From assembly GCA_029262635.1 (NCBI GenBank), contig JAJCZA010000029.1:29938-93937 (forward strand): 64,000 nt of DNA. Reading direction: 5' to 3'. Positions 9,115-55,031 of the stretch are shown here, piece by piece. Both the position numbers and the translations under genes were made by a program. Origin of the DNA: Vampirovibrionales bacterium (GTDB lineage: Bacteria > Cyanobacteriota > Vampirovibrionia > Vampirovibrionales > Vampirovibrionaceae). The notes below the pieces were generated by a model. The model was not told where the DNA came from and did not search any database. It saw only the letters and a list, made by a program, of their open reading frames with translations. Position 1 is the first letter of the stretch. Each line of letters starts with the position of its first letter.

Positions 9115-10287
9115 ATGGATGGGCAAGGACATACCTACGAAATTGTAATTAATAAAGACGAACTTCTGATTGAGCTGTCGTCAGATGATGTTTACTTTAT
9201 TTCCAAGCAGATGGATAAATGGTTCAAAATCCTGTTGGATGATAGCTATGTTCCTGTCAGTATACCCACCCCACCTCAAGCATTGCCAGCTCCTCCTGCT
9301 CAGGAAGAAGAACGTTCTCCTCAACCACCTTCTCTTCCACCAGAGCAACCTCAGCCGACCCAACAGCCGATTATGTCAGCTAACGACATGAGTCAGGTTC
9401 ACTTGCCCCATGAAATGCCTTCACAGCAATATTCTCAACAAGCGTATACTCAACCTGTTCAGTCTCATCCTGGGGTTCAGCCCTCTGTCATGCCTGCTCC
9501 GCCCCCTGTAGAAAACTATCCCCAGCCTGTTCAAAATTATAATCAACCTCAACAGAATCAAGCTGTTCAGCCTATGTTACCCCCTGTAGAGAACTCAACT
9601 CCTACACCGATACCGGCCGCTCATACCGCTCCGCCGAGTTCAATGCAGCCCATGCGGCCTTCTCCAGCTATTTCCCAACGTATGTCACCTTCAACAGCTC
9701 AGGTACAGCAACAAATTAACCCTTCGGCTCAGCCGGCGGCCCCGTTGCCACAGACGGAGTCGGTCCCTCACCCCATGGCTTCAACTCCTCCTGGAAGCGG
9801 GCCGGAATATTATCTGCCAGAACCGGAGGAGGTTTCTTTGCCTCAAGAAGCACCGGGTTTGGAAGCGCCATTACCTGCTGCTCTTGTGGAACAAACAGAA
9901 GAGGGAGAAGGCGATTTTGAGCGGGTTATGGATACGCTCATGGAGGATTTAGGCGAAAGTGATGCGACGCCATTTCAAGAAGAAGCTGACGAAACCATTA
10001 CCTCTTTGAGTGAACTGTGTAAAAAGGGGAATGCCAGTACGTCCGAAGATTTTATGTTGTTTACGGCTTATTATTTGACCTATTTTGAAGCGGTTGAGAA
10101 TTTTTCTCTTAAGCAACTAAACTCCGCAATGGTGAAATCGGGTTTAACCCCGGTAAATCACAGTGTCTTGGAAGTTGCACTTTCTAAAGGCTTTTTATCA
10201 ATGGTCCCTGATTTAACAGGGACTATGAATGTAACTGAGTATGCCTTAAGTCCTGAGGGTCAGCAGTACACAACCAACCTACTTTAG
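9115..10287 (+). CDS. Pro/Gln-rich low-complexity protein with N-terminal about 40-aa module and C-terminal globular domain
   Basis: 390-aa ORF. Residues about 50-250 are PQ-rich (PPQALPAPPAQEEE...QPVQNYNQPQQNQ). The C-terminal 120 aa are non-repetitive. Confidence 0.7.
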   Translation: MDGQGHTYEIVINKDELLIELSSDDVYFISKQMDKWFKILLDDSYVPVSIPTPPQALPAPPAQEEERSPQPPSLPPEQPQPTQQPIMSANDMSQVHLPHEMPSQQYSQQAYTQPVQSHPGVQPSVMPAPPPVENYPQPVQNYNQPQQNQAVQPMLPPVENSTPTPIPAAHTAPPSSMQPMRPSPAISQRMSPSTAQVQQQINPSAQPAAPLPQTESVPHPMASTPPGSGPEYYLPEPEEVSLPQEAPGLEAPLPAALVEQTEEGEGDFERVMDTLMEDLGESDATPFQEEADETITSLSELCKKGNASTSEDFMLFTAYYLTYFEAVENFSLKQLNSAMVKSGLTPVNHSVLEVALSKGFLSMVPDLTGTMNVTEYALSPEGQQYTTNLL

Positions 10288-10329
10288 GGCGGGTTACAGC
10301 GGTGATAAATAGACCCTTTGGTAATATCT

Positions 10330-10360
10330 ATTTACATAAAAAGCCCATTTTTATGTAAAT
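10330..10360. other. Perfect 13-bp AT-rich inverted repeat (ATTTACATAAAAA-gccca-TTTTTATGTAAAT) followed by a T-run; terminator and/or operator
   Basis: Read directly. It lies 43 nt after the 9115 ORF stop and about 90 nt upstream of prs, and is followed by tctgcatcttttttgcttttttg. Confidence 0.5.
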
Positions 10361-10438
10361 TCTGCATCTTTTTTGCTTTTTTGCTATTTTAAACCTGTAG
10401 AATATGACCGATAGCAAGCAGACTGGAGGGTTTTTCCC

Positions 10439-11434
10439 GTGACCGCAATCGAAATGAGGGTACCTGAGTTGGAGCAAGAGCGTAAGCCATCTGATACAAA
10501 TCAGGTTAAGATCTTCACCGGTCGTGCCAACCCCGTTCTTGCTGCGGAAATCGCTAAATACCTTGGGACTGAGTTAAGCGAGATTAATGTTAAAAATTTT
10601 AGTGATGGAGAAACTTACGTCAGGGTTGAGGAAAGTGTCCGAGGCCATGACGTTTTTGTTATTCAGCCGACTTGCAATCCGGTAAATGAAAATCTGATGG
10701 AACTGCTCCTGATGATTGATGCTCTCAAACGTTCTAGTGCCAACACCATTACAGCGGTAATTCCTTATTTTGGTTATGCTCGACAAGATCGAAAAACCGT
10801 GGGGCGAGAAGCGATTTCCGCTAAACTGGTTGCCGATATGATTTCAACGGCAGGTGCGCATCGGGTTGTGGCAATGGAGCTTCATACCGGACAGCTTCAA
10901 GGCTTTTTTAATATTTTAACGGATCATCTGTTCGCTACCCCGGCGTTTATGGCTTACCTGAAAGAGAAAAATCTGGACGATCTGGTGATTGTATCGCCCG
11001 ATGCGGGAGGGGTTGAGCGTGCTCGGGTTTATGCAAAAAAACTGGGCGCCCCCATTGCGATTATTGATAAACGGCGAAGCGAGCATAATAAAGCACAGGT
11101 CTACCACATTATTGGGGAAGTGAAGGACAAAAACGCTATTATTATTGATGACATGATCGACACCGGTGGTACCATTTGCGCCGGAGCTGAACTGGTTTTA
11201 AAAGAAGGTGCTAAAAGCGTATCAGCACTTGCCGCTCATGCGGTTTTTTCTGGCCCGGCAGTTAAGCGTTTGGAAGAATCAGTTTTCACTGAGGTTATTG
11301 TTAGTAACAGCATTCCCCTCTCGCCAGAGGCGGAAGCGTGCGAGAAGATTATACAACTTTCCATCGCTCCACTCTTAGGTGAGGCTATTCGTCGGATTCA
11401 TGACGATGAATCCGTTAGTCAGATGTTTGAGTAA
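10439..11434 (+). CDS. prs: Ribose-phosphate pyrophosphokinase (PRPP synthetase)
   Basis: VKIFTGRANPVLAAEIAKYLG, VAMELHTGQLQGFF and DDMIDTGGT are PRPP synthetase motifs. GTG start gives about 20 extra N-terminal residues. Confidence 0.92.
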   Translation: MTAIEMRVPELEQERKPSDTNQVKIFTGRANPVLAAEIAKYLGTELSEINVKNFSDGETYVRVEESVRGHDVFVIQPTCNPVNENLMELLLMIDALKRSSANTITAVIPYFGYARQDRKTVGREAISAKLVADMISTAGAHRVVAMELHTGQLQGFFNILTDHLFATPAFMAYLKEKNLDDLVIVSPDAGGVERARVYAKKLGAPIAIIDKRRSEHNKAQVYHIIGEVKDKNAIIIDDMIDTGGTICAGAELVLKEGAKSVSALAAHAVFSGPAVKRLEESVFTEVIVSNSIPLSPEAEACEKIIQLSIAPLLGEAIRRIHDDESVSQMFE

Positions 11435-11744
11435 CGTCTAACGGTTTCTTTCCGTGTAGGCCCTTTTCGCTTTTGGCACGACCGGGACTGTTTCAAGAAG
11501 ACTAATCTCACTGTTGCTACAAAAATAATAATTCATCTGTTTAGATGATGGGAATCGTAGCGCCGATAGTATATATTACAAATGTAGGGTTAAGCCGGAC
11601 TTACAACCCAAAACTAACGACCATAGGCTGTCTTCCTCAACTACTCAGCAAATGCTCTTTCCTTCGCTTCCGATTATTCTTTATGATCGGGGCGTTTTTG
11701 TTTCTAATTCTAGTTTAGCGAAATAAATTAGAGAAAAAATTTTC

Positions 11745-48714: not shown

Positions 48715-48951
48715 ATGTATCGTGACGGAGCCATCCATATTGAAGAAGATGACCAGTGTTTTTCCTGTAAACACTATCTTAAAGGGGTGTCCTGCCCTTT
48801 ACTGGAAGCTCTGGCTATGGAAGTGGTCGAACTTCAGAGTGATATTACGGTTCGAAACTGTGGGTTTTACGAGAAGTTTGAACGAAAGTTACGCCTGCTG
48901 GATCCCCTTGAGATGAGTCAACAGGAACCGGATCAAACAGAACTGGCCTAG
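48715..48951 (+). CDS. Possible small Cys-rich protein (78 aa)
   Basis: CFSC...C...C pattern. It overlaps the 3' end of the HD-GYP gene convergently by 4 nt. Confidence 0.3.
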   Translation: MYRDGAIHIEEDDQCFSCKHYLKGVSCPLLEALAMEVVELQSDITVRNCGFYEKFERKLRLLDPLEMSQQEPDQTELA

Positions 48952-51653
48952 GAGAGATCGTCGAGTTCGCCGCGGTGGTAGATTTCCCTGAACTGGCGCA
49001 TCAGATCCACTTCACCTTTGGTTAACTTACTTTTTAAGGTTATGCCATAGTACTCTTCAATGGTAATTGAGGGATCAAATTGTTCAATAATGGTTATCCC
49101 TGCCGAAGATAAAATAACTCGCTTTTCCACCATGAGGATTTTACCAACCTCAATCAGCGGCGTATCAAAAAATGCCCCTACACAGTCTGGATCAAAATGG
49201 GTGCCCGAATCCTTGCGTAGAATCTTTAGCACCCGATCAAAGGGCATTCGGTCCCGATAGTGTCGTCGAGAGGTAATGGCGTCAAAAACATCGCTGAGAG
49301 CAATAACTCGACCCAACAGAGGGATTTCTGGACCTTTTAGTTGTTTGGGGTAACCGGTACCATTCATTTTTTCATGGTGTGAGGCCGCAATTTCGGGCAC
49401 ACGTCTTAAATGTTTTTCAAAACGGATGTTAGATAGGATATCGTAGGTGTTTTGAGCGTGTTCTTGAATCTTTCGGTATTCCAGATCTGTTAATCGTCCG
49501 TCTTTTGTCAGAATATTTTCGGGAACCCCAATTTTTCCAATATCATGAAGCAGGGCAGAATAATTTAGGGTTTCTAATTCCTCTTCCTGCAGGTGCATTT
49601 GTTTGCCAACTACTTTAGAGTATTGGGCCACTCGTTCCGAATGCCCTGCTGTGATCGGATCCCGAGAGTCGATCGTACTTGAAAGGGCTTTAACAAAACT
49701 TGAAAAGGCCACCCGTTGCTCTTCAACCAGTTGAGCGTTTTCAATCGCAACGCCGGCTTGTGAGGCAATGGCCATTAGCAAATCTTCGTCGACCCGCTCG
49801 AAATGGCCCTTTGTCTTGTTTAATACCTGAAAAACCCCGATAATTTCGTTGTGCCGGTTTCTCATGGGCATACATAAAAGGTTATCTGTCTTGTAGCCTG
49901 TTTTTTTATCGACGTCTTTATTAAATCTCGGATCGTCATAAGCGTCTGTAATATTTAGAATTTCGCCTGTTTTACAGACATACCCTGCCAGACCCAAGTG
50001 GGCTGGAAAACGAATTTCATGGCTTTCTTCTAGTCCGGTTCCAACCTTGGACCAAAGCTCGTTCTGCTCCCGATCATAAAGGAATACCGTACAGCGATCA
50101 CAAGTTAAGGCCAGGCGCGTTTCATCCATGATAAGTTTCAATAGTTTTTCGATGTCTCGCTCGGCAAACATAGCCTGGCCGACTCGGAGTAGAGAAACGA
50201 CGGATTTTGCTTGTGAGCTGATGTTTTTCGGAGGTTCTTCCGTCTTAAGGGTTATTTCGTTCGGGTCAGTAGTGGAGGTTTCCGGGCTGTCTGAACTGAC
50301 TTCACTTAGAGCATTTAAAGCTTCTAGTAGACCGCGTTCGTTCTGGAAAATTTTTTCATGATTGGCACGTTTGTCCACAATCGATTGCCACTGTTCGGTA
50401 TCGGTTCGATAGAGTTCATCTTCAATATAACTGGCCAAAAAGCGAAGCCCGTTCTGTTCCGCTACTTTTAAGGCTTCCATCAGGCTTTCTAATGCCAACT
50501 TTTTGTCGTTCATTTCCATAAAGACTTTGCCAAATTCAAAGTAGGTTTTGGCCTGTTCATCCACTAGATTGAGCTGTTTAAAAATAGCCAAGGCTTCGCC
50601 CATGGTTTCCAGTGCTTTTTGAGTGTCGCCGAACTCCGCTTGCAAACGGGCTAATAATCGATAGGACTTACCGAGCCCCTTTTTTGCCTGCTTTTTCTTA
50701 AAAATAGGAATGACCTGTTCGGTAAGAAGAGCATGAGACTCATTAAATTCTCGGTCAATAAAATGGATGAATGCTTTAAAAAGCAGGGTCACTCCAAATT
50801 CTTTGCTTATTTTTTTCTGGTCGTGATGCTCTTCGGCAAGTCCTTGAATCAGTCGTTTGGCTTCGGTTAACTCACCTTGATGAATGGCTAGCTTGATCAG
50901 TTCATTTTTCAGGCTAGTCACTCGCTTAGAGTCTCCCAACGATTCAGATAGGGTGAGAGAACGGTTTAAGCAACCGTAGGCATGAATGTAATCCTCTTTA
51001 ATGAGATGAAGCCGTCCTAAAATCTGAGCCGTAACCGCTTCTTCCCAAGGAAGATCCAGTTGTTCTTTGATTCGGACGGAGGATTCTAGGCATTTGACGG
51101 CCAGATGAAAATCACCGGTTCGTTCGTAATGGATGCCCAAGGAGTCGTTTATTTTTGCCGCTTCCAGCCCATCCTGCCAGCAAAAAGTTTTTGCCTGACG
51201 AAAGAAGCGAACCCCTTCTCCGTATTGGCCACTTCGATACTTAACCAGTCCTTTGTAGTGTAATAATCTTGCCCGAACCTCATTGATTCCTTTTGCACCC
51301 ATGTGGATGTCTACCATTTCTTGTGCTTCGGCAAAGGTCCGGCTGGCTCGGGAGGTTCCTTCATCAGAATTTTCATTGTATTTTAGCCACGCCAATTCAA
51401 TTAAGCAACGAATACTCCCCAGAAAGTTCCGTTGGTTCTGGTAAACGGTCTGTGCTTTCTCCAGACAGGTAATGGCGCCATCGTAGTCTTTTTTAAAATT
51501 TAAAAGCAGGCCCTTGTCGTACAGTGCGTCAGGGTCTTGGGTTAGATCCGTCTGATCTTCAACGTCTTTCCTTGGAACGACTCCGCCAATGGAGTCATAA
51601 CGTTTCTCGTCGTCGTAGGGATCAACATGTAGTTCGTTTGACATTTTAGCCAT
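48948..51653 (-). CDS. TPR-GAF-HD-GYP multidomain protein (c-di-GMP phosphodiesterase family)
   Basis: N-terminal TPR repeats, a central GAF domain, and C-terminal HD-GYP (HDIGKIGVPENIL ... HHEKMNGTGYPKQL). Confidence 0.85.
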   Translation of the reverse strand: MAKMSNELHVDPYDDEKRYDSIGGVVPRKDVEDQTDLTQDPDALYDKGLLLNFKKDYDGAITCLEKAQTVYQNQRNFLGSIRCLIELAWLKYNENSDEGTSRASRTFAEAQEMVDIHMGAKGINEVRARLLHYKGLVKYRSGQYGEGVRFFRQAKTFCWQDGLEAAKINDSLGIHYERTGDFHLAVKCLESSVRIKEQLDLPWEEAVTAQILGRLHLIKEDYIHAYGCLNRSLTLSESLGDSKRVTSLKNELIKLAIHQGELTEAKRLIQGLAEEHHDQKKISKEFGVTLLFKAFIHFIDREFNESHALLTEQVIPIFKKKQAKKGLGKSYRLLARLQAEFGDTQKALETMGEALAIFKQLNLVDEQAKTYFEFGKVFMEMNDKKLALESLMEALKVAEQNGLRFLASYIEDELYRTDTEQWQSIVDKRANHEKIFQNERGLLEALNALSEVSSDSPETSTTDPNEITLKTEEPPKNISSQAKSVVSLLRVGQAMFAERDIEKLLKLIMDETRLALTCDRCTVFLYDREQNELWSKVGTGLEESHEIRFPAHLGLAGYVCKTGEILNITDAYDDPRFNKDVDKKTGYKTDNLLCMPMRNRHNEIIGVFQVLNKTKGHFERVDEDLLMAIASQAGVAIENAQLVEEQRVAFSSFVKALSSTIDSRDPITAGHSERVAQYSKVVGKQMHLQEEELETLNYSALLHDIGKIGVPENILTKDGRLTDLEYRKIQEHAQNTYDILSNIRFEKHLRRVPEIAASHHEKMNGTGYPKQLKGPEIPLLGRVIALSDVFDAITSRRHYRDRMPFDRVLKILRKDSGTHFDPDCVGAFFDTPLIEVGKILMVEKRVILSSAGITIIEQFDPSITIEEYYGITLKSKLTKGEVDLMRQFREIYHRGELDDLS

Positions 51654-52047: not shown

Positions 52048-53175
52048 ATGGGCACCATCACCAAAGCACCTCCTGACATTTATTACACCGAAGACGTAAA
52101 AGAAGCACTTCATCAGGCCCGCTATTTGTCCAAGAAACGGAAGGATTTTAAGCCAGATGAAATGATTTTAGATCGAGAGTGTCTGGCAGGCTTACTTCAA
52201 TCCAACCGAGTGTTTTCCCGTTTGGACTGTCTTCTCAACGCTATGGACGTTAAGCCCAAGGCACTGCAGAAAAAGCTGGAAGAATGCCTAACTGCTTCAG
52301 AATACTCGATTGATAAGGGGTTCCCAGAGCGCTCTCTTATCAAGCGAGCTGAACAGCTTGTTTTAGAAGAGAATGCAGAGAGTACGGCGGCCAGCCAACG
52401 ACTTAATGTGGAGCATCTGCTTTACGCACTCTGTCAGTCAGAGGATTCGGTGGTTCAAACCGTTTTCGATAATTTTAGTCTGACGGCTAATACCATCACC
52501 CAGGCACGAGAAAGCTTACTCAAAAAGGCAGATCACCTGCCCTTTTCAAGGTTGACTCTGCTCAGCGGGCTTTACCTCTTGCGAGAGACTGTTGAAATTG
52601 TGTTTACTGTCATTGTTTTTCTTATTATTATTAAAGAAGGCTTTGGCGAGCTTCGGCTAATTCCATCTGAGTCCATGCTTCCCGGCTTACAGATTGGTGA
52701 TCGATTGGTAGTTGAGAAGGTTACCCGTTGGTGGCGACCTTATCAGCGAGAGGATATTCTTGTTTTTTATCCGCCTCCTCCCCGATCGGTGCTTCATAAG
52801 GACCCCTTTAGCCTTTTTATGCGGGCGACAGGATTTTCTAGCCTTCTGCATAACACTTCCGATGATCCGGTTGATAAAGCCTATATCAAGCGAGTGATCG
52901 GCTTGCCGGGTGAAACCGTTGAAGTGGTTCCCGGTGTGGGCGTGTATGTTAATGGCCTGCTTCTTGATGAAGATGACTATACATTGGAAACAGGTTATAA
53001 ATGCGGCATGTTTTGCCAACCGACTAAAATTCCAGAGGGCTACTACCTGATGATGGGAGATAACCGAAACAACAGTGAAGATGGCCGGTTCTTCGGGTTT
53101 GAACCCAAAGAACGCGTTGTAGGGCGGGCGTTTCTACGAATTTTGCCCGTTCAGCGCATCGGTCTTCTGGATTAA
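52048..53175 (+). CDS. lepB: Signal peptidase I with about 170-aa N-terminal double Clp_N-like domain
   Basis: SPase boxes PSESMLPGL, YIKRVIGLPGETVEV and GDNRNNSEDGRFFG. The N-terminal region has two Clp_N-like repeats (...LNVEHLLYALCQSEDSVVQTVFDNFSLTANTI...) before the single TM. Confidence 0.85.
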   Translation: MGTITKAPPDIYYTEDVKEALHQARYLSKKRKDFKPDEMILDRECLAGLLQSNRVFSRLDCLLNAMDVKPKALQKKLEECLTASEYSIDKGFPERSLIKRAEQLVLEENAESTAASQRLNVEHLLYALCQSEDSVVQTVFDNFSLTANTITQARESLLKKADHLPFSRLTLLSGLYLLRETVEIVFTVIVFLIIIKEGFGELRLIPSESMLPGLQIGDRLVVEKVTRWWRPYQREDILVFYPPPPRSVLHKDPFSLFMRATGFSSLLHNTSDDPVDKAYIKRVIGLPGETVEVVPGVGVYVNGLLLDEDDYTLETGYKCGMFCQPTKIPEGYYLMMGDNRNNSEDGRFFGFEPKERVVGRAFLRILPVQRIGLLD

Positions 53176-53342: not shown

Positions 53343-53858
53343 TTGTCGCCGCTGATTGAGCTCTACGTGATGGGGATTGCACTGGATTCCAGAACGGGTA
53401 CACCCATTGTTGTTCTAAATGACAAGGAAAACCGTCGTGCCCTGCCGATTTGGATTGGCACGGCTGAGGCGAGCGCTATTATTCGGCAGTTAGAGCAAAT
53501 TAAAACCGCTCGCCCCATGACTCATGACTTAATTGACAGTATTCTAAATCATACGGGCTACGGGTTAACCCGGATTGAAATTAACGATCTGACATCGGAC
53601 ACGTATTATGCCAGCTTATACCTTAAGGATAAAGACGGTCAGGAGCATGTGATAGATGCCCGTCCTTCGGATGCCATTGCTTTAGCCTTGCGTAATAATG
53701 CGCAGATTTTCGCCACGGCCAATGTGGTTTCGGAAGGGACGATTTCGACGGATCAGGTGCGAGACGAAGAAGAGACCCAAGCCTTTAAAGAGTTTATCAA
53801 AGAGCTAAAACCTTCGGATTTCCATAAATTTCGCATTGACGACGAATCCGAGCAATAA
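53343..53858 (+). CDS. Bifunctional nuclease family protein (DUF151/BFN)
   Basis: LIELYVMGIALDSRTGTPIVVLNDKENRRALPIWIGTAEASAI is a typical DUF151 N-terminus. TTG start with an AAAAAGGAAG RBS. Confidence 0.7.
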   Translation: MSPLIELYVMGIALDSRTGTPIVVLNDKENRRALPIWIGTAEASAIIRQLEQIKTARPMTHDLIDSILNHTGYGLTRIEINDLTSDTYYASLYLKDKDGQEHVIDARPSDAIALALRNNAQIFATANVVSEGTISTDQVRDEEETQAFKEFIKELKPSDFHKFRIDDESEQ

Positions 53859-53927: not shown

Positions 53928-55031
53928 ATGATGAATCTTTCCTTGCACAATGGCTTTTTACCCATTTTAAATCCATCGCATAAACGTGATGAGATTTATT
54001 TTGGTCAAAAAAAAAACCGAAGAACTTCGAATAAAAAGAACCAAACGAAAAACCTTGTTCCGAGTCCGCCCCTTGTCTCCCCTCTTCAACAACAGCCCAT
54101 TAAACACTTTTTGATGAAAGATAAAATAAAAAAGGGAAAATTGCGTTTGTTTTTAGATGATAAAGGAGGAGTGCTTTTAGTTTTAGCAGGAGAAGCGGCT
54201 TTAATACAATGGTTGACTGCCAGTAACGGGTTACTTCTCTCTTTGCTGTCTTCTAATGTTATGCTCTTCGCTTCACTTTTATTAGTCCCTTGGATCTTAA
54301 CGTTGGGACTCATATTTGGTCCAGAGGTTGCTGCCGTAAAATTTAATCCGGGTTTAATTCAATCCAAAAACCCATGGCCTAAAAACACAAAAGTACTCGC
54401 CTCCTCCAGTCAATTTGTTCTTAGTTATGGGAACCGCTATAGTCAAGCTTTAATGAGCGCTATAAAAAGCTCAAATTCACTCGATGAGGCTCAAAATCAA
54501 CTGGTGAATCAAGGGTACTCCTCTAAGCTCAATTTAAAACAAAAAGCGATTTCCCGGCCCGAATCTTTAGGTGGCTGGAAGAAAAATGATTCAACCCCAA
54601 TTAATCGTTTGTTACTAGGAATGTATGACCAAAGTGAGCTGGGGTTTAAGCAAACTATAGACATCATGAAAGAAACATTGACCCGCGAATTTAAGGTGGA
54701 TAAAACGGTTTCTACTGGTGAGGATTATAAGACCATTCAGGCGGAGCTTGAAGAATTTGAACGGCAAATCAAAAGAAATCGGGCTGAGGGAAAAAAGTCG
54801 GAAGTGATTTTGTATTATTCGGGCCATGGAGGTGCAGAATCATTGATAGGCTACGATACTAAGGTGAGCGACGATACTAAATTAGATTTATTTAAAGCGG
54901 AAGGTGATGCCGAGTTTTGGTTTTCAAACATGTCTGAAACCGCTTTTAGGGCATTGGTTCGCCGACATTTGGGCGAAGCCGATGCTGTTTATATTATCCT
55001 GGACGCCTGCGCCTCGGGTGCCGCTGTTTAG
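53928..55031 (+). CDS. Membrane protein with C-terminal caspase-like His/Cys dyad (YYSGHGG ... IILDACASG), p20-only
   Basis: Lys-rich N-terminus and two TM segments. In the C-terminal about 110 aa, His (SGHG) and Cys (DACxSG) are spaced about 55 aa apart, as in the caspase/metacaspase fold. The ORF stops 6 aa after the Cys. Confidence 0.45.
   Translation: MMNLSLHNGFLPILNPSHKRDEIYFGQKKNRRTSNKKNQTKNLVPSPPLVSPLQQQPIKHFLMKDKIKKGKLRLFLDDKGGVLLVLAGEAALIQWLTASNGLLLSLLSSNVMLFASLLLVPWILTLGLIFGPEVAAVKFNPGLIQSKNPWPKNTKVLASSSQFVLSYGNRYSQALMSAIKSSNSLDEAQNQLVNQGYSSKLNLKQKAISRPESLGGWKKNDSTPINRLLLGMYDQSELGFKQTIDIMKETLTREFKVDKTVSTGEDYKTIQAELEEFERQIKRNRAEGKKSEVILYYSGHGGAESLIGYDTKVSDDTKLDLFKAEGDAEFWFSNMSETAFRALVRRHLGEADAVYIILDACASGAAV

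Follow-up and report, generated by a model that had tools for sequence, protein, structure and literature searches.

A Clp/Hsp100-type N-domain fused to the type I signal peptidase of the Vampirovibrionales

Introduction

Type I signal peptidase (SPase I) is essential, has been studied in depth and serves as a target for antibiotics, and its catalytic domain must be extracytoplasmic in order to cleave signal peptides. In the current view the enzyme works only from the outer side of the membrane and recognises nothing on the cytoplasmic side, and SPase I is not known to be coupled to cytoplasmic quality control. Among the Clp proteins, the adaptors MecA and ClpS dock on Clp N-domains (ClpS on that of ClpA), and ClpT binds the ClpP ring. 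The ClpC N-domain contains two phospho-arginine (pArg) pockets, T7/E32 and T81/E106 in Bacillus subtilis numbering, and the N-domains of ClpB, Hsp104 and ClpC have in common a hydrophobic groove for unfolded polypeptides that is also the site for cyclomarin-type peptides (PMC12583610). In mycobacterial ClpC2, a Clp_N region that lacks the AAA+ motor acts as a pArg-responsive sensor and repressor (PMC13345244). Here we describe a gene in which an SPase I and a Clp/Hsp100-type N-domain are joined in one polypeptide. It is located at 52048..53175 (+) in a 64,000-nucleotide stretch of DNA from a bacterium of the Vampirovibrionales, an order related to the cyanobacteria but non-photosynthetic (GenBank assembly GCA_029262635.1, contig JAJCZA010000029.1, positions 29,938 to 93,937), which is referred to below as the window and to which all gene coordinates refer unless another locus is named.

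The literature searched contains no paper in which an SPase I bears a Clp N-domain or a similar folded cytoplasmic domain, and a search for the Vampirovibrio chlorellavorus genome or a table of its secretion genes returned nothing useful. A preliminary description of the locus had presented the architecture as undescribed. As far as the literature searched is concerned this stands, but both domains are tagged automatically by Pfam (precomputed PF02861 and PF10502 matches) on about half of the members, and so the combination is visible in databases; public records name the fusion only as 'signal peptidase I'.

Gene and protein architecture

The gene is a single uninterrupted reading frame of 375 codons plus a stop, with no internal stop or frameshift, and its product is identical to protein P0001. 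The ATG at 52048 is the earliest ATG, GTG or TTG downstream of the preceding in-frame stop codon, and the start can be no further downstream than this because helix 1, which is conserved, starts at residue 14; an alternative start at Met39 would truncate the N-domain. The protein is laid out as a Clp/Hsp100-type N-domain (residues ~11–158), a basic tether, a transmembrane helix (~174–199) and an S26 peptidase domain in which Ser207, Lys281 and box E are intact. A full-length AlphaFold2 model computed from the family alignment has a mean pLDDT (predicted local distance difference test) of 90.4 and a pTM (predicted template modelling score) of 0.79, and places two sets of four helices first, followed by a continuous helix at residues 168–199 and then a beta-rich domain. 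We also looked for an AAA+ module and none is present, the N-domain being followed instead by the transmembrane helix and the S26 domain; the fusion protein is therefore not a Clp ATPase and has the head domain alone in common with these proteins. We are close to certain that this architecture, with a Clp N-domain, a transmembrane segment and a complete S26 signal peptidase, is real.

The signal peptidase domain

The S26 catalytic domain of the type I signal peptidase occupies residues 200–375 (52645..53172, +) and is recognised by all of the approaches used. It matches Pfam Peptidase_S26 (PF10502) over residues 179–365 with an E-value of 2.2e-36 (125.8 bits versus a curated cut-off of 22.9) and TIGR02227 with an E-value of 1.8e-34 (118.9 bits versus a curated cut-off of 47). 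Solved SPase I structures are matched both by sequence (4nv4 at E 5.5e-15, plus the E. coli LepB entries) and by fold, with the C-terminal part of the full model finding 1t7d, 1b12 and 4n31 in a Foldseek search (E 3e-7 to 1e-6). The catalytic Ser207 lies in box B (IPSESM; codon at 52666..52668, +), which aligns with IPSGSM in the E. coli LepB structures, and the general base Lys281 lies in box D (YIKRVIGLPGE; codon at 52888..52890, +), which aligns with 'vkr(i)iglpg' of solved SPase I. Box E, GDNRNNSEDGRFFG, spans residues 337–350 (53056..53097, +) and aligns with GDNRDNSADSRYWG of E. coli LepB. The preliminary description had claimed a complete SPase I with all of its boxes, and this is fully borne out, with IPS207ESM, YIK281RVIG and the box E segment from G337 to G350 all in place.

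Conservation was counted in an alignment of 109 full-length homologues (A1), and a second alignment (A2) contains 33 N-terminal parts. S207, S209, M210, K281, R282, G337, D338, N339, R340, S343, D345 and R347 are invariant in all 109 members, and the cysteine pair C319/C323 of the catalytic domain is conserved in 108–109 of them. The studied protein agrees with the box E consensus GDNRxxSxDSR; at position 346 it has a glycine, where 102 of the 109 members have a serine. The invariance of the catalytic and box residues across the family argues that it is under selection as a working peptidase. We identify the fusion as LepB, the type I signal peptidase of this Vampirovibrionales bacterium and probably its main one. 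It is an S26 enzyme with a Ser/Lys dyad and a complete set of catalytic residues, and it is predicted from these to be active.

We note that there is an insertion of ~25–30 residues between boxes C and D (52780–52872, residues 245–275) containing the invariant residues D252, R259 and G262. This insertion is present in both the Vampirovibrionales and the Obscuribacterales and is absent from photosynthetic cyanobacterial LepB proteins, where it corresponds to a gap at positions 70–93 of the hidden Markov model (HMM).

The Clp N-domain

The segment ahead of the membrane helix is composed of two four-helix repeats. Repeat 1 (residues 11–83; 52078..52296, +) is defined by alignment to the ClpB model, by the family profile against the Protein Data Bank (PDB), by the AlphaFold2 model (helices at 15–29, 42–51, 58–65 and 70–83) and by comparison of the repeats with each other. 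Repeat 2 (residues 96–158; 52333..52521, +) is defined by Pfam Clp_N at residues 119–158, by a match to the PDB ClpC N-domain at residues 98–163, and by the AlphaFold2 model (helices at 96–108, 121–129, 134–142 and 147–158) together with Foldseek. The canonical motif is retained in repeat 2 as V-E122-H123-L-L. Repeat 1 is diverged, with D42-R43-E44 in place of the 'GTEH' motif (the family pattern is D-R-(D/E)-Y), and it contains the near-invariant and family-specific residues R54, F56 and D60, in the arrangement R54-x-F56-x-x-x-D60.

The support from searches with the single sequence is modest. Pfam Clp_N matches residues 119–158 with 22.6 bits for the whole protein (E 1e-4) and 25.5 bits for the N-terminal part alone, with a gathering score of 20.7. 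Two Pfam Clp_N matches had been anticipated in the preliminary description; the one in repeat 2 is found above the gathering score, but repeat 1 goes undetected by Pfam alone. The NCBIfam ClpB model is more extensive in its coverage, with its positions 1–140 aligning to residues 13–159 (E 4e-5 using the N-terminal part alone), and the ClpC N-domain chain 6emw_F is found at E 0.007 with the single sequence.

Profile searches recover both repeats. The N-domain profile aligns across the solved N-domain of Plasmodium ClpB2/HSP101 (profile positions 20–149 with chain positions 19–147) at E 2.5e-10, and further PDB matches include Hsp104 (E 1.9e-7) and ClpC (E 6.9e-7). When the same profile is run against 1.84 billion representative proteins, the fused family ranks first and is followed by many multi-repeat proteins, which themselves match Pfam Clp_N at E ~1e-110. 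Repeats 1 and 2 are homologous to each other, since an hhalign comparison of the two gives a probability of 85% and an E-value of 6e-6.

The fold comparisons give the same picture. In the Foldseek search with the full model, the N-terminal part matches the N-domains of ClpC, ClpB, ClpC1, Hsp104 and ClpT1. A model of the N-domain only has a pLDDT of 89.2, and all 50 of its best 50 PDB matches are Clp/Hsp100 N-domains; these alignments have 143–177 columns (most have 144–160) and, for isolated N-domain chains, template modelling scores of 0.54–0.75 when normalised on the target. The N-terminus is a genuine Clp/Hsp100-type N-domain with two four-helix repeats, and the in-frame N-terminal double Clp_N domain of ~160–170 residues first proposed for this protein is confirmed by the family profile and by the fold. 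Chance similarity to Clp_N is ruled out by the profile E-values, the reciprocal retrieval, the fold matches and the homology between the repeats.

Distribution of the fusion

A protein search returned more than 120 matches, nearly all of which are full-length (86–100% coverage), with 36–52% identity and lengths of 337–452 residues. Those that have a name in the source records are called 'signal peptidase I' and are assigned to Vampirovibrio chlorellavorus, Vampirovibrio sp., Vampirovibrionales or 'Cyanobacteria bacterium'. More than 100 of the full-length homologues show 40–50% identity. An assembly chimera is ruled out, since the fusion is present in over 100 independent assemblies.

We also scanned one genome per GTDB species with family-specific peptide patterns and scored the 72 loci obtained with separate HMMs for the N-domain and the S26 domain. 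The long form is present in all 43 Vampirovibrionales loci from the species-representative genomes, and these fall into two groups. In 28 loci the N-domain and S26 domain are both recognised in one ORF (open reading frame), with N-domain E-values of 1e-14 to 1e-57; one of these is in the type isolate V. chlorellavorus NCIMB 11383 (locus L004). The other 15 loci (L026–L043 without L029, L033 and L035) form a second subclade that includes the closed chromosome CP050876.1 (L037). Here the ORFs are mostly 420–530 residues from stop to stop, and two are shorter, one of them because it is cut by a contig end. The N-terminal extension in this subclade is unrecognised by Pfam. An hhalign comparison of 11 of the 15 extensions (L026–27, L034 and L036–43) with the N-domain family gives a probability of 95% and an E-value of 1.8e-8 over 135 columns. 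Nine of the loci (L034 and L036–L043) have a hydrophobic insertion of ~40 residues between the N-domain repeats, e.g. 'RLFFNTFFLDVPEER'.

The domain is absent from the related groups in the scan. Obscuribacterales (L044–46, at ~9770–11680) have two tandem canonical S26 genes without a Clp N-domain, and in the photosynthetic cyanobacteria (Gloeobacterales, Nodularia, Chamaesiphon and others) the LepB ORFs measure ~200–230 residues from stop to stop and likewise lack the domain. The profile search found no free-standing gene of this N-domain subtype. One candidate, P0124 (173 residues), was rejected because it stops inside the transmembrane helix at a contig end and is a fragment. The fusion is an old, order-wide trait of the Vampirovibrionales, and its persistence through deep divergence argues that the N-domain is functional.

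There are three instances in which metagenome-assembled genomes with other labels carry the Vampirovibrionales-type long form: 'Gammaproteobacteria' (L040), 'Oculatellaceae' (L008) and 'Coleofasciculaceae' (L022), the last of which also has the same downstream synteny as the Vampirovibrionales. These are probably mislabelled or contaminated bins.

Membrane helix, tether and topology

Kyte-Doolittle values above 1.6 (19-residue window) are confined to one segment, residues 174–202, which as the sole hydrophobic segment is in keeping with the one transmembrane helix originally described. The helix is placed at residues 174–199 (52567..52644, +) from this profile, the AlphaFold2 helix at 168–199 and the start of the Pfam S26 match at residue 179, and it contains an invariant E180 and a near-invariant E183. 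It is preceded by a basic juxtamembrane tether at residues 159–173 (52522..52566, +). The alignment columns at residues 159–166 are gaps in 96–107 of the 109 sequences, and the tether in the studied copy is eight residues longer than in ~88% of the family, where the median distance from the last N-domain helix to the core of the membrane helix is 14 residues.

We infer an N-in/C-out topology, because an N-terminal signal sequence is absent and there is a single membrane segment, because the flanking charge is biased across the family (a net +2.05 in the tether versus +0.72 on the opposite side of the membrane), because the catalytic domain contains the conserved C319/C323 pair, unlike the N-domain, whose cysteines are not conserved across the family, and because an SPase I has to act on the trans side. 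Taken together these features clearly predict that the N-domain is cytoplasmic, and in this topology the Clp N-domain would be right up against the membrane on its cytoplasmic side. The preliminary description had placed it there too, a prediction now backed by the single helix, the charge bias and the cysteine pair.

Conservation of known N-domain binding sites

The B. subtilis ClpC N-domain sequence, verified against PDB 2y1r, was aligned to the family and its residues were mapped with counts among the 109 members. At pArg site 1, ClpC T7 corresponds to S/T14 in the fusion and is conserved, and E32 corresponds to R43, which is an arginine in 75 of 109 members and represents a charge reversal. 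Near site 2, ClpC T105 corresponds to V121 (valine in 66 of 109), and E106 and H107 correspond to E122 and H123, which are conserved in 89 and 94 of the 109 members respectively. A canonical two-site pArg reader is thus rejected, with site 1 lost through the change of E32 to R43 and site 2 at best partial. ClpC F6 and Y80 have hydrophobic counterparts in Y13 and L97/L98, which precede helices 1 and 5, and this would fit a groove that has been retained.

Evolution is much faster in the N-domain than in the S26 domain, and few N-domain positions are invariant. R54, F56 and D60 could be either a binding motif or a structural brace. The net charge of the N-domain ranges from -8 to +10 across the family and is not conserved, and electrostatic capture of the basic n-regions of signal peptides is accordingly unsupported.

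Possible roles of the N-domain

The best explanation overall is that the protein is an active LepB with a membrane-proximal cytoplasmic Clp N-domain that serves in peptide or protein docking, and we consider this to be probably correct, if not by much. The docking function of the N-domain, taken by itself, is more tentative and is proposed by analogy. The N-domain would lie at the cytoplasmic face, beside the n-region of the membrane-spanning signal peptide and the Sec machinery, and would be a peptide or protein docking module rather than an enzyme, as are all characterised Clp N-domains. Our best guess is that its ligand is a stretch of polypeptide that is exposed or unfolded and belongs to a precursor, to a signal peptide or to a partner located at the translocon, and that docking would concentrate or order substrates for the peptidase across the membrane. 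The N-domain would not be doing this as a canonical two-site pArg reader.

Several points weigh against this explanation. The single-sequence Pfam score for Clp_N is marginal (22.6 versus 20.7 bits), with repeat 1 missed by Pfam alone. The variation in N-domain charge makes a simple electrostatic grip on basic n-regions unlikely, and the near-invariant residues R54, F56, D60, A127, H123 and D133 may be structural rather than constituting a binding site. It is also assumed that the fused enzyme is the main or sole SPase I of its host; no second S26 ORF was found in the 64-kb window or within ±10 kb of any of the Vampirovibrionales loci scanned.

A more ambitious form of the docking explanation is a 'two-sided' signal peptidase, in which precursors, n-regions or stalled intermediates would be recognised on the cis side, or Clp proteins or adaptors recruited there, and cleavage would occur on the trans side. 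We regard this as rather unlikely. If true, it would physically couple signal-peptide processing to cytoplasmic protein quality control. More generally, the order-wide retention of a chaperone-type docking domain through deep divergence suggests that secretion includes a step on the cis side that has gone unrecognised, for example the capture of substrates, the docking of a partner or clearance.

Of the alternatives, the one that fares best is that the N-domain is passive or topogenic: a domesticated duplicate of a Clp N-domain that sets the N-in orientation of the enzyme or serves to stabilise or localise it, and that has no specific partner. The faster evolution of the N-domain relative to S26, its few invariant positions, its variable net charge, and the tolerance in one subclade of an inter-repeat insertion and of divergence beyond Pfam recognition are all consistent with this. 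However, the domain is kept in every member found, with divergence down to ~40% identity, the R54-x-F56-x-x-x-D60 motif and the very short tethers are maintained, and canonical SPases orient correctly without any such domain. We therefore think that a passive role is improbable; were it correct, the fusion would be of interest as a curiosity of taxonomy and as a clean synapomorphy for the Vampirovibrionales.

Less probable again is a direct link to Clp proteolysis, in which the tethered N-domain would mimic the head of ClpC or ClpA and recruit ClpS-type adaptors or the ClpP core, so that jammed precursors or released signal peptides would be cleared where cleavage occurs. The matches of the N-domain model to ClpT1/T2 (4y0b and 4y0c) and to the ClpA N-domain in ClpA–ClpS complexes (1lzw and 1r6o) are about as good as those to the N-domains of ClpC and ClpB. 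The proposal is otherwise one of pure analogy, however, and no Clp gene adjoins the fusion in the window or in the 43 related loci.

A regulatory sensor, in which a small ligand or the oligomeric state would switch the activity or stability of the peptidase much as pArg does for ClpC2, is slightly less likely still. ClpC2 provides the precedent of a Clp_N region outside the AAA+ proteins that acts as a pArg-responsive switch (PMC13345244), and repeat 2 of the fusion retains E122/H123, equivalent to ClpC E106/H107. But the fusion lacks pArg site 1 and has a valine in place of T105 at site 2, and control of a trans-side active site through one membrane helix is difficult to picture; an McsB-type kinase was not seen, no genome-wide search for one having been made. 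Finally, the notion that an error in sequencing or assembly fused a small Clp_N gene to lepB, or that the Clp_N similarity arose by chance, has a negligible probability, for although the single-sequence Clp_N score is barely above threshold, the same single ORF is found in the more than 100 independent assemblies, including NCIMB 11383 and the closed chromosome CP050876.1, and the profile match at E 2.5e-10, the reciprocal Clp_N retrieval and the 50 of 50 top fold matches all identify Clp N-domains.

Genome context

Directly downstream of lepB is a BFN_dom gene encoding a bifunctional nuclease (PF02577, E 8e-39; 53343–53858, +). This gene is in the same position in 25 of the 43 Vampirovibrionales loci, with ~72–74% identity, and is more tightly conserved than lepB itself. 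Divergently transcribed from lepB is a gene encoding a 901-residue signalling protein with TPR, GAF and HD-GYP (HD_5) domains (48948–51653, -), which is syntenic in 17 related loci. Other conserved neighbours include xseA and an FGGY kinase gene. The conserved neighbours suggest no link to Sec, secretion or Clp. An Rfam scan of the window identified zero RNA families, and a scan for promoters and terminators around the gene gave nothing informative above shuffled expectation.

A further gene (53928–55031, +) codes for a 367-residue protein that is hydrophobic in its N-terminal part and matches a caspase family weakly (Peptidase_C14, E 2e-4). Its His motif is 'YYSGHGG' and its Cys motif 'LDACASG', and the ORF stops six residues past the catalytic cysteine. 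The product could be an orthocaspase in minimal, p20-only form, or the gene could be truncated.

Comparison with known systems

In its catalytic domain, Ser/Lys dyad, boxes B–E and fold, the fusion is like other S26A enzymes, including LepB of E. coli, SipS and SpsB of Gram-positive bacteria and LepB1 and LepB2 of cyanobacteria, and as in canonical SPase I the membrane anchor immediately precedes box B. It departs from these enzymes in two ways. First, canonical SPase I proteins have one or two transmembrane helices and short cytoplasmic loops, whereas the fusion adds a folded domain of ~150 residues that is predicted to be cytoplasmic; the cyanobacterial and Obscuribacterales LepB ORFs, at ~200–340 residues from stop to stop, are without it. 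Second, the catalytic domain of the fusion family contains the insertion of ~25–30 residues, which photosynthetic cyanobacterial LepB lacks, and the conserved cysteine pair.

The N-domain resembles those of the Clp/Hsp100 proteins (ClpB, ClpC/ClpC1, ClpA, Hsp104/HSP101 and ClpV; PF02861 x2) in its double four-helix repeat of ~145 residues and in the x-E-H-L-L motif of repeat 2. Unlike in the Clp/Hsp100 unfoldases, it is followed by a membrane helix and a peptidase rather than by an AAA+ module, and R54, F56 and D60 are specific to the family. Similarity extends to the multi-repeat Clp_N array proteins, which carry Pfam Clp_N and are retrieved by the N-domain profile with E-values down to 6e-29 (P0123, the best array), but these have 5–10 repeats and no S26 domain in those examined. 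The occurrence of Clp_N in such arrays indicates that the module is evolutionarily promiscuous. Two of them, P0123 and P0160, have 5–8 Clp_N repeats and a C-terminal TIR domain, and one of the two also has an AAA-lid domain; this architecture looks defence-like.

Parallels are provided by plant ClpT1/ClpT2 and actinobacterial ClpC2, in which a Clp N-domain is likewise found outside an unfoldase and functions in binding or sensing. Both are soluble, with ClpT standing alone and ClpC2 having a DNA-binding part attached, whereas in the Vampirovibrionales the N-domain is tethered to the membrane and joined to a protease predicted to be extracytoplasmic. The fusion adds a membrane-tethered case to the few Clp N-domains, such as ClpT and ClpC2, that work without an AAA+ motor.

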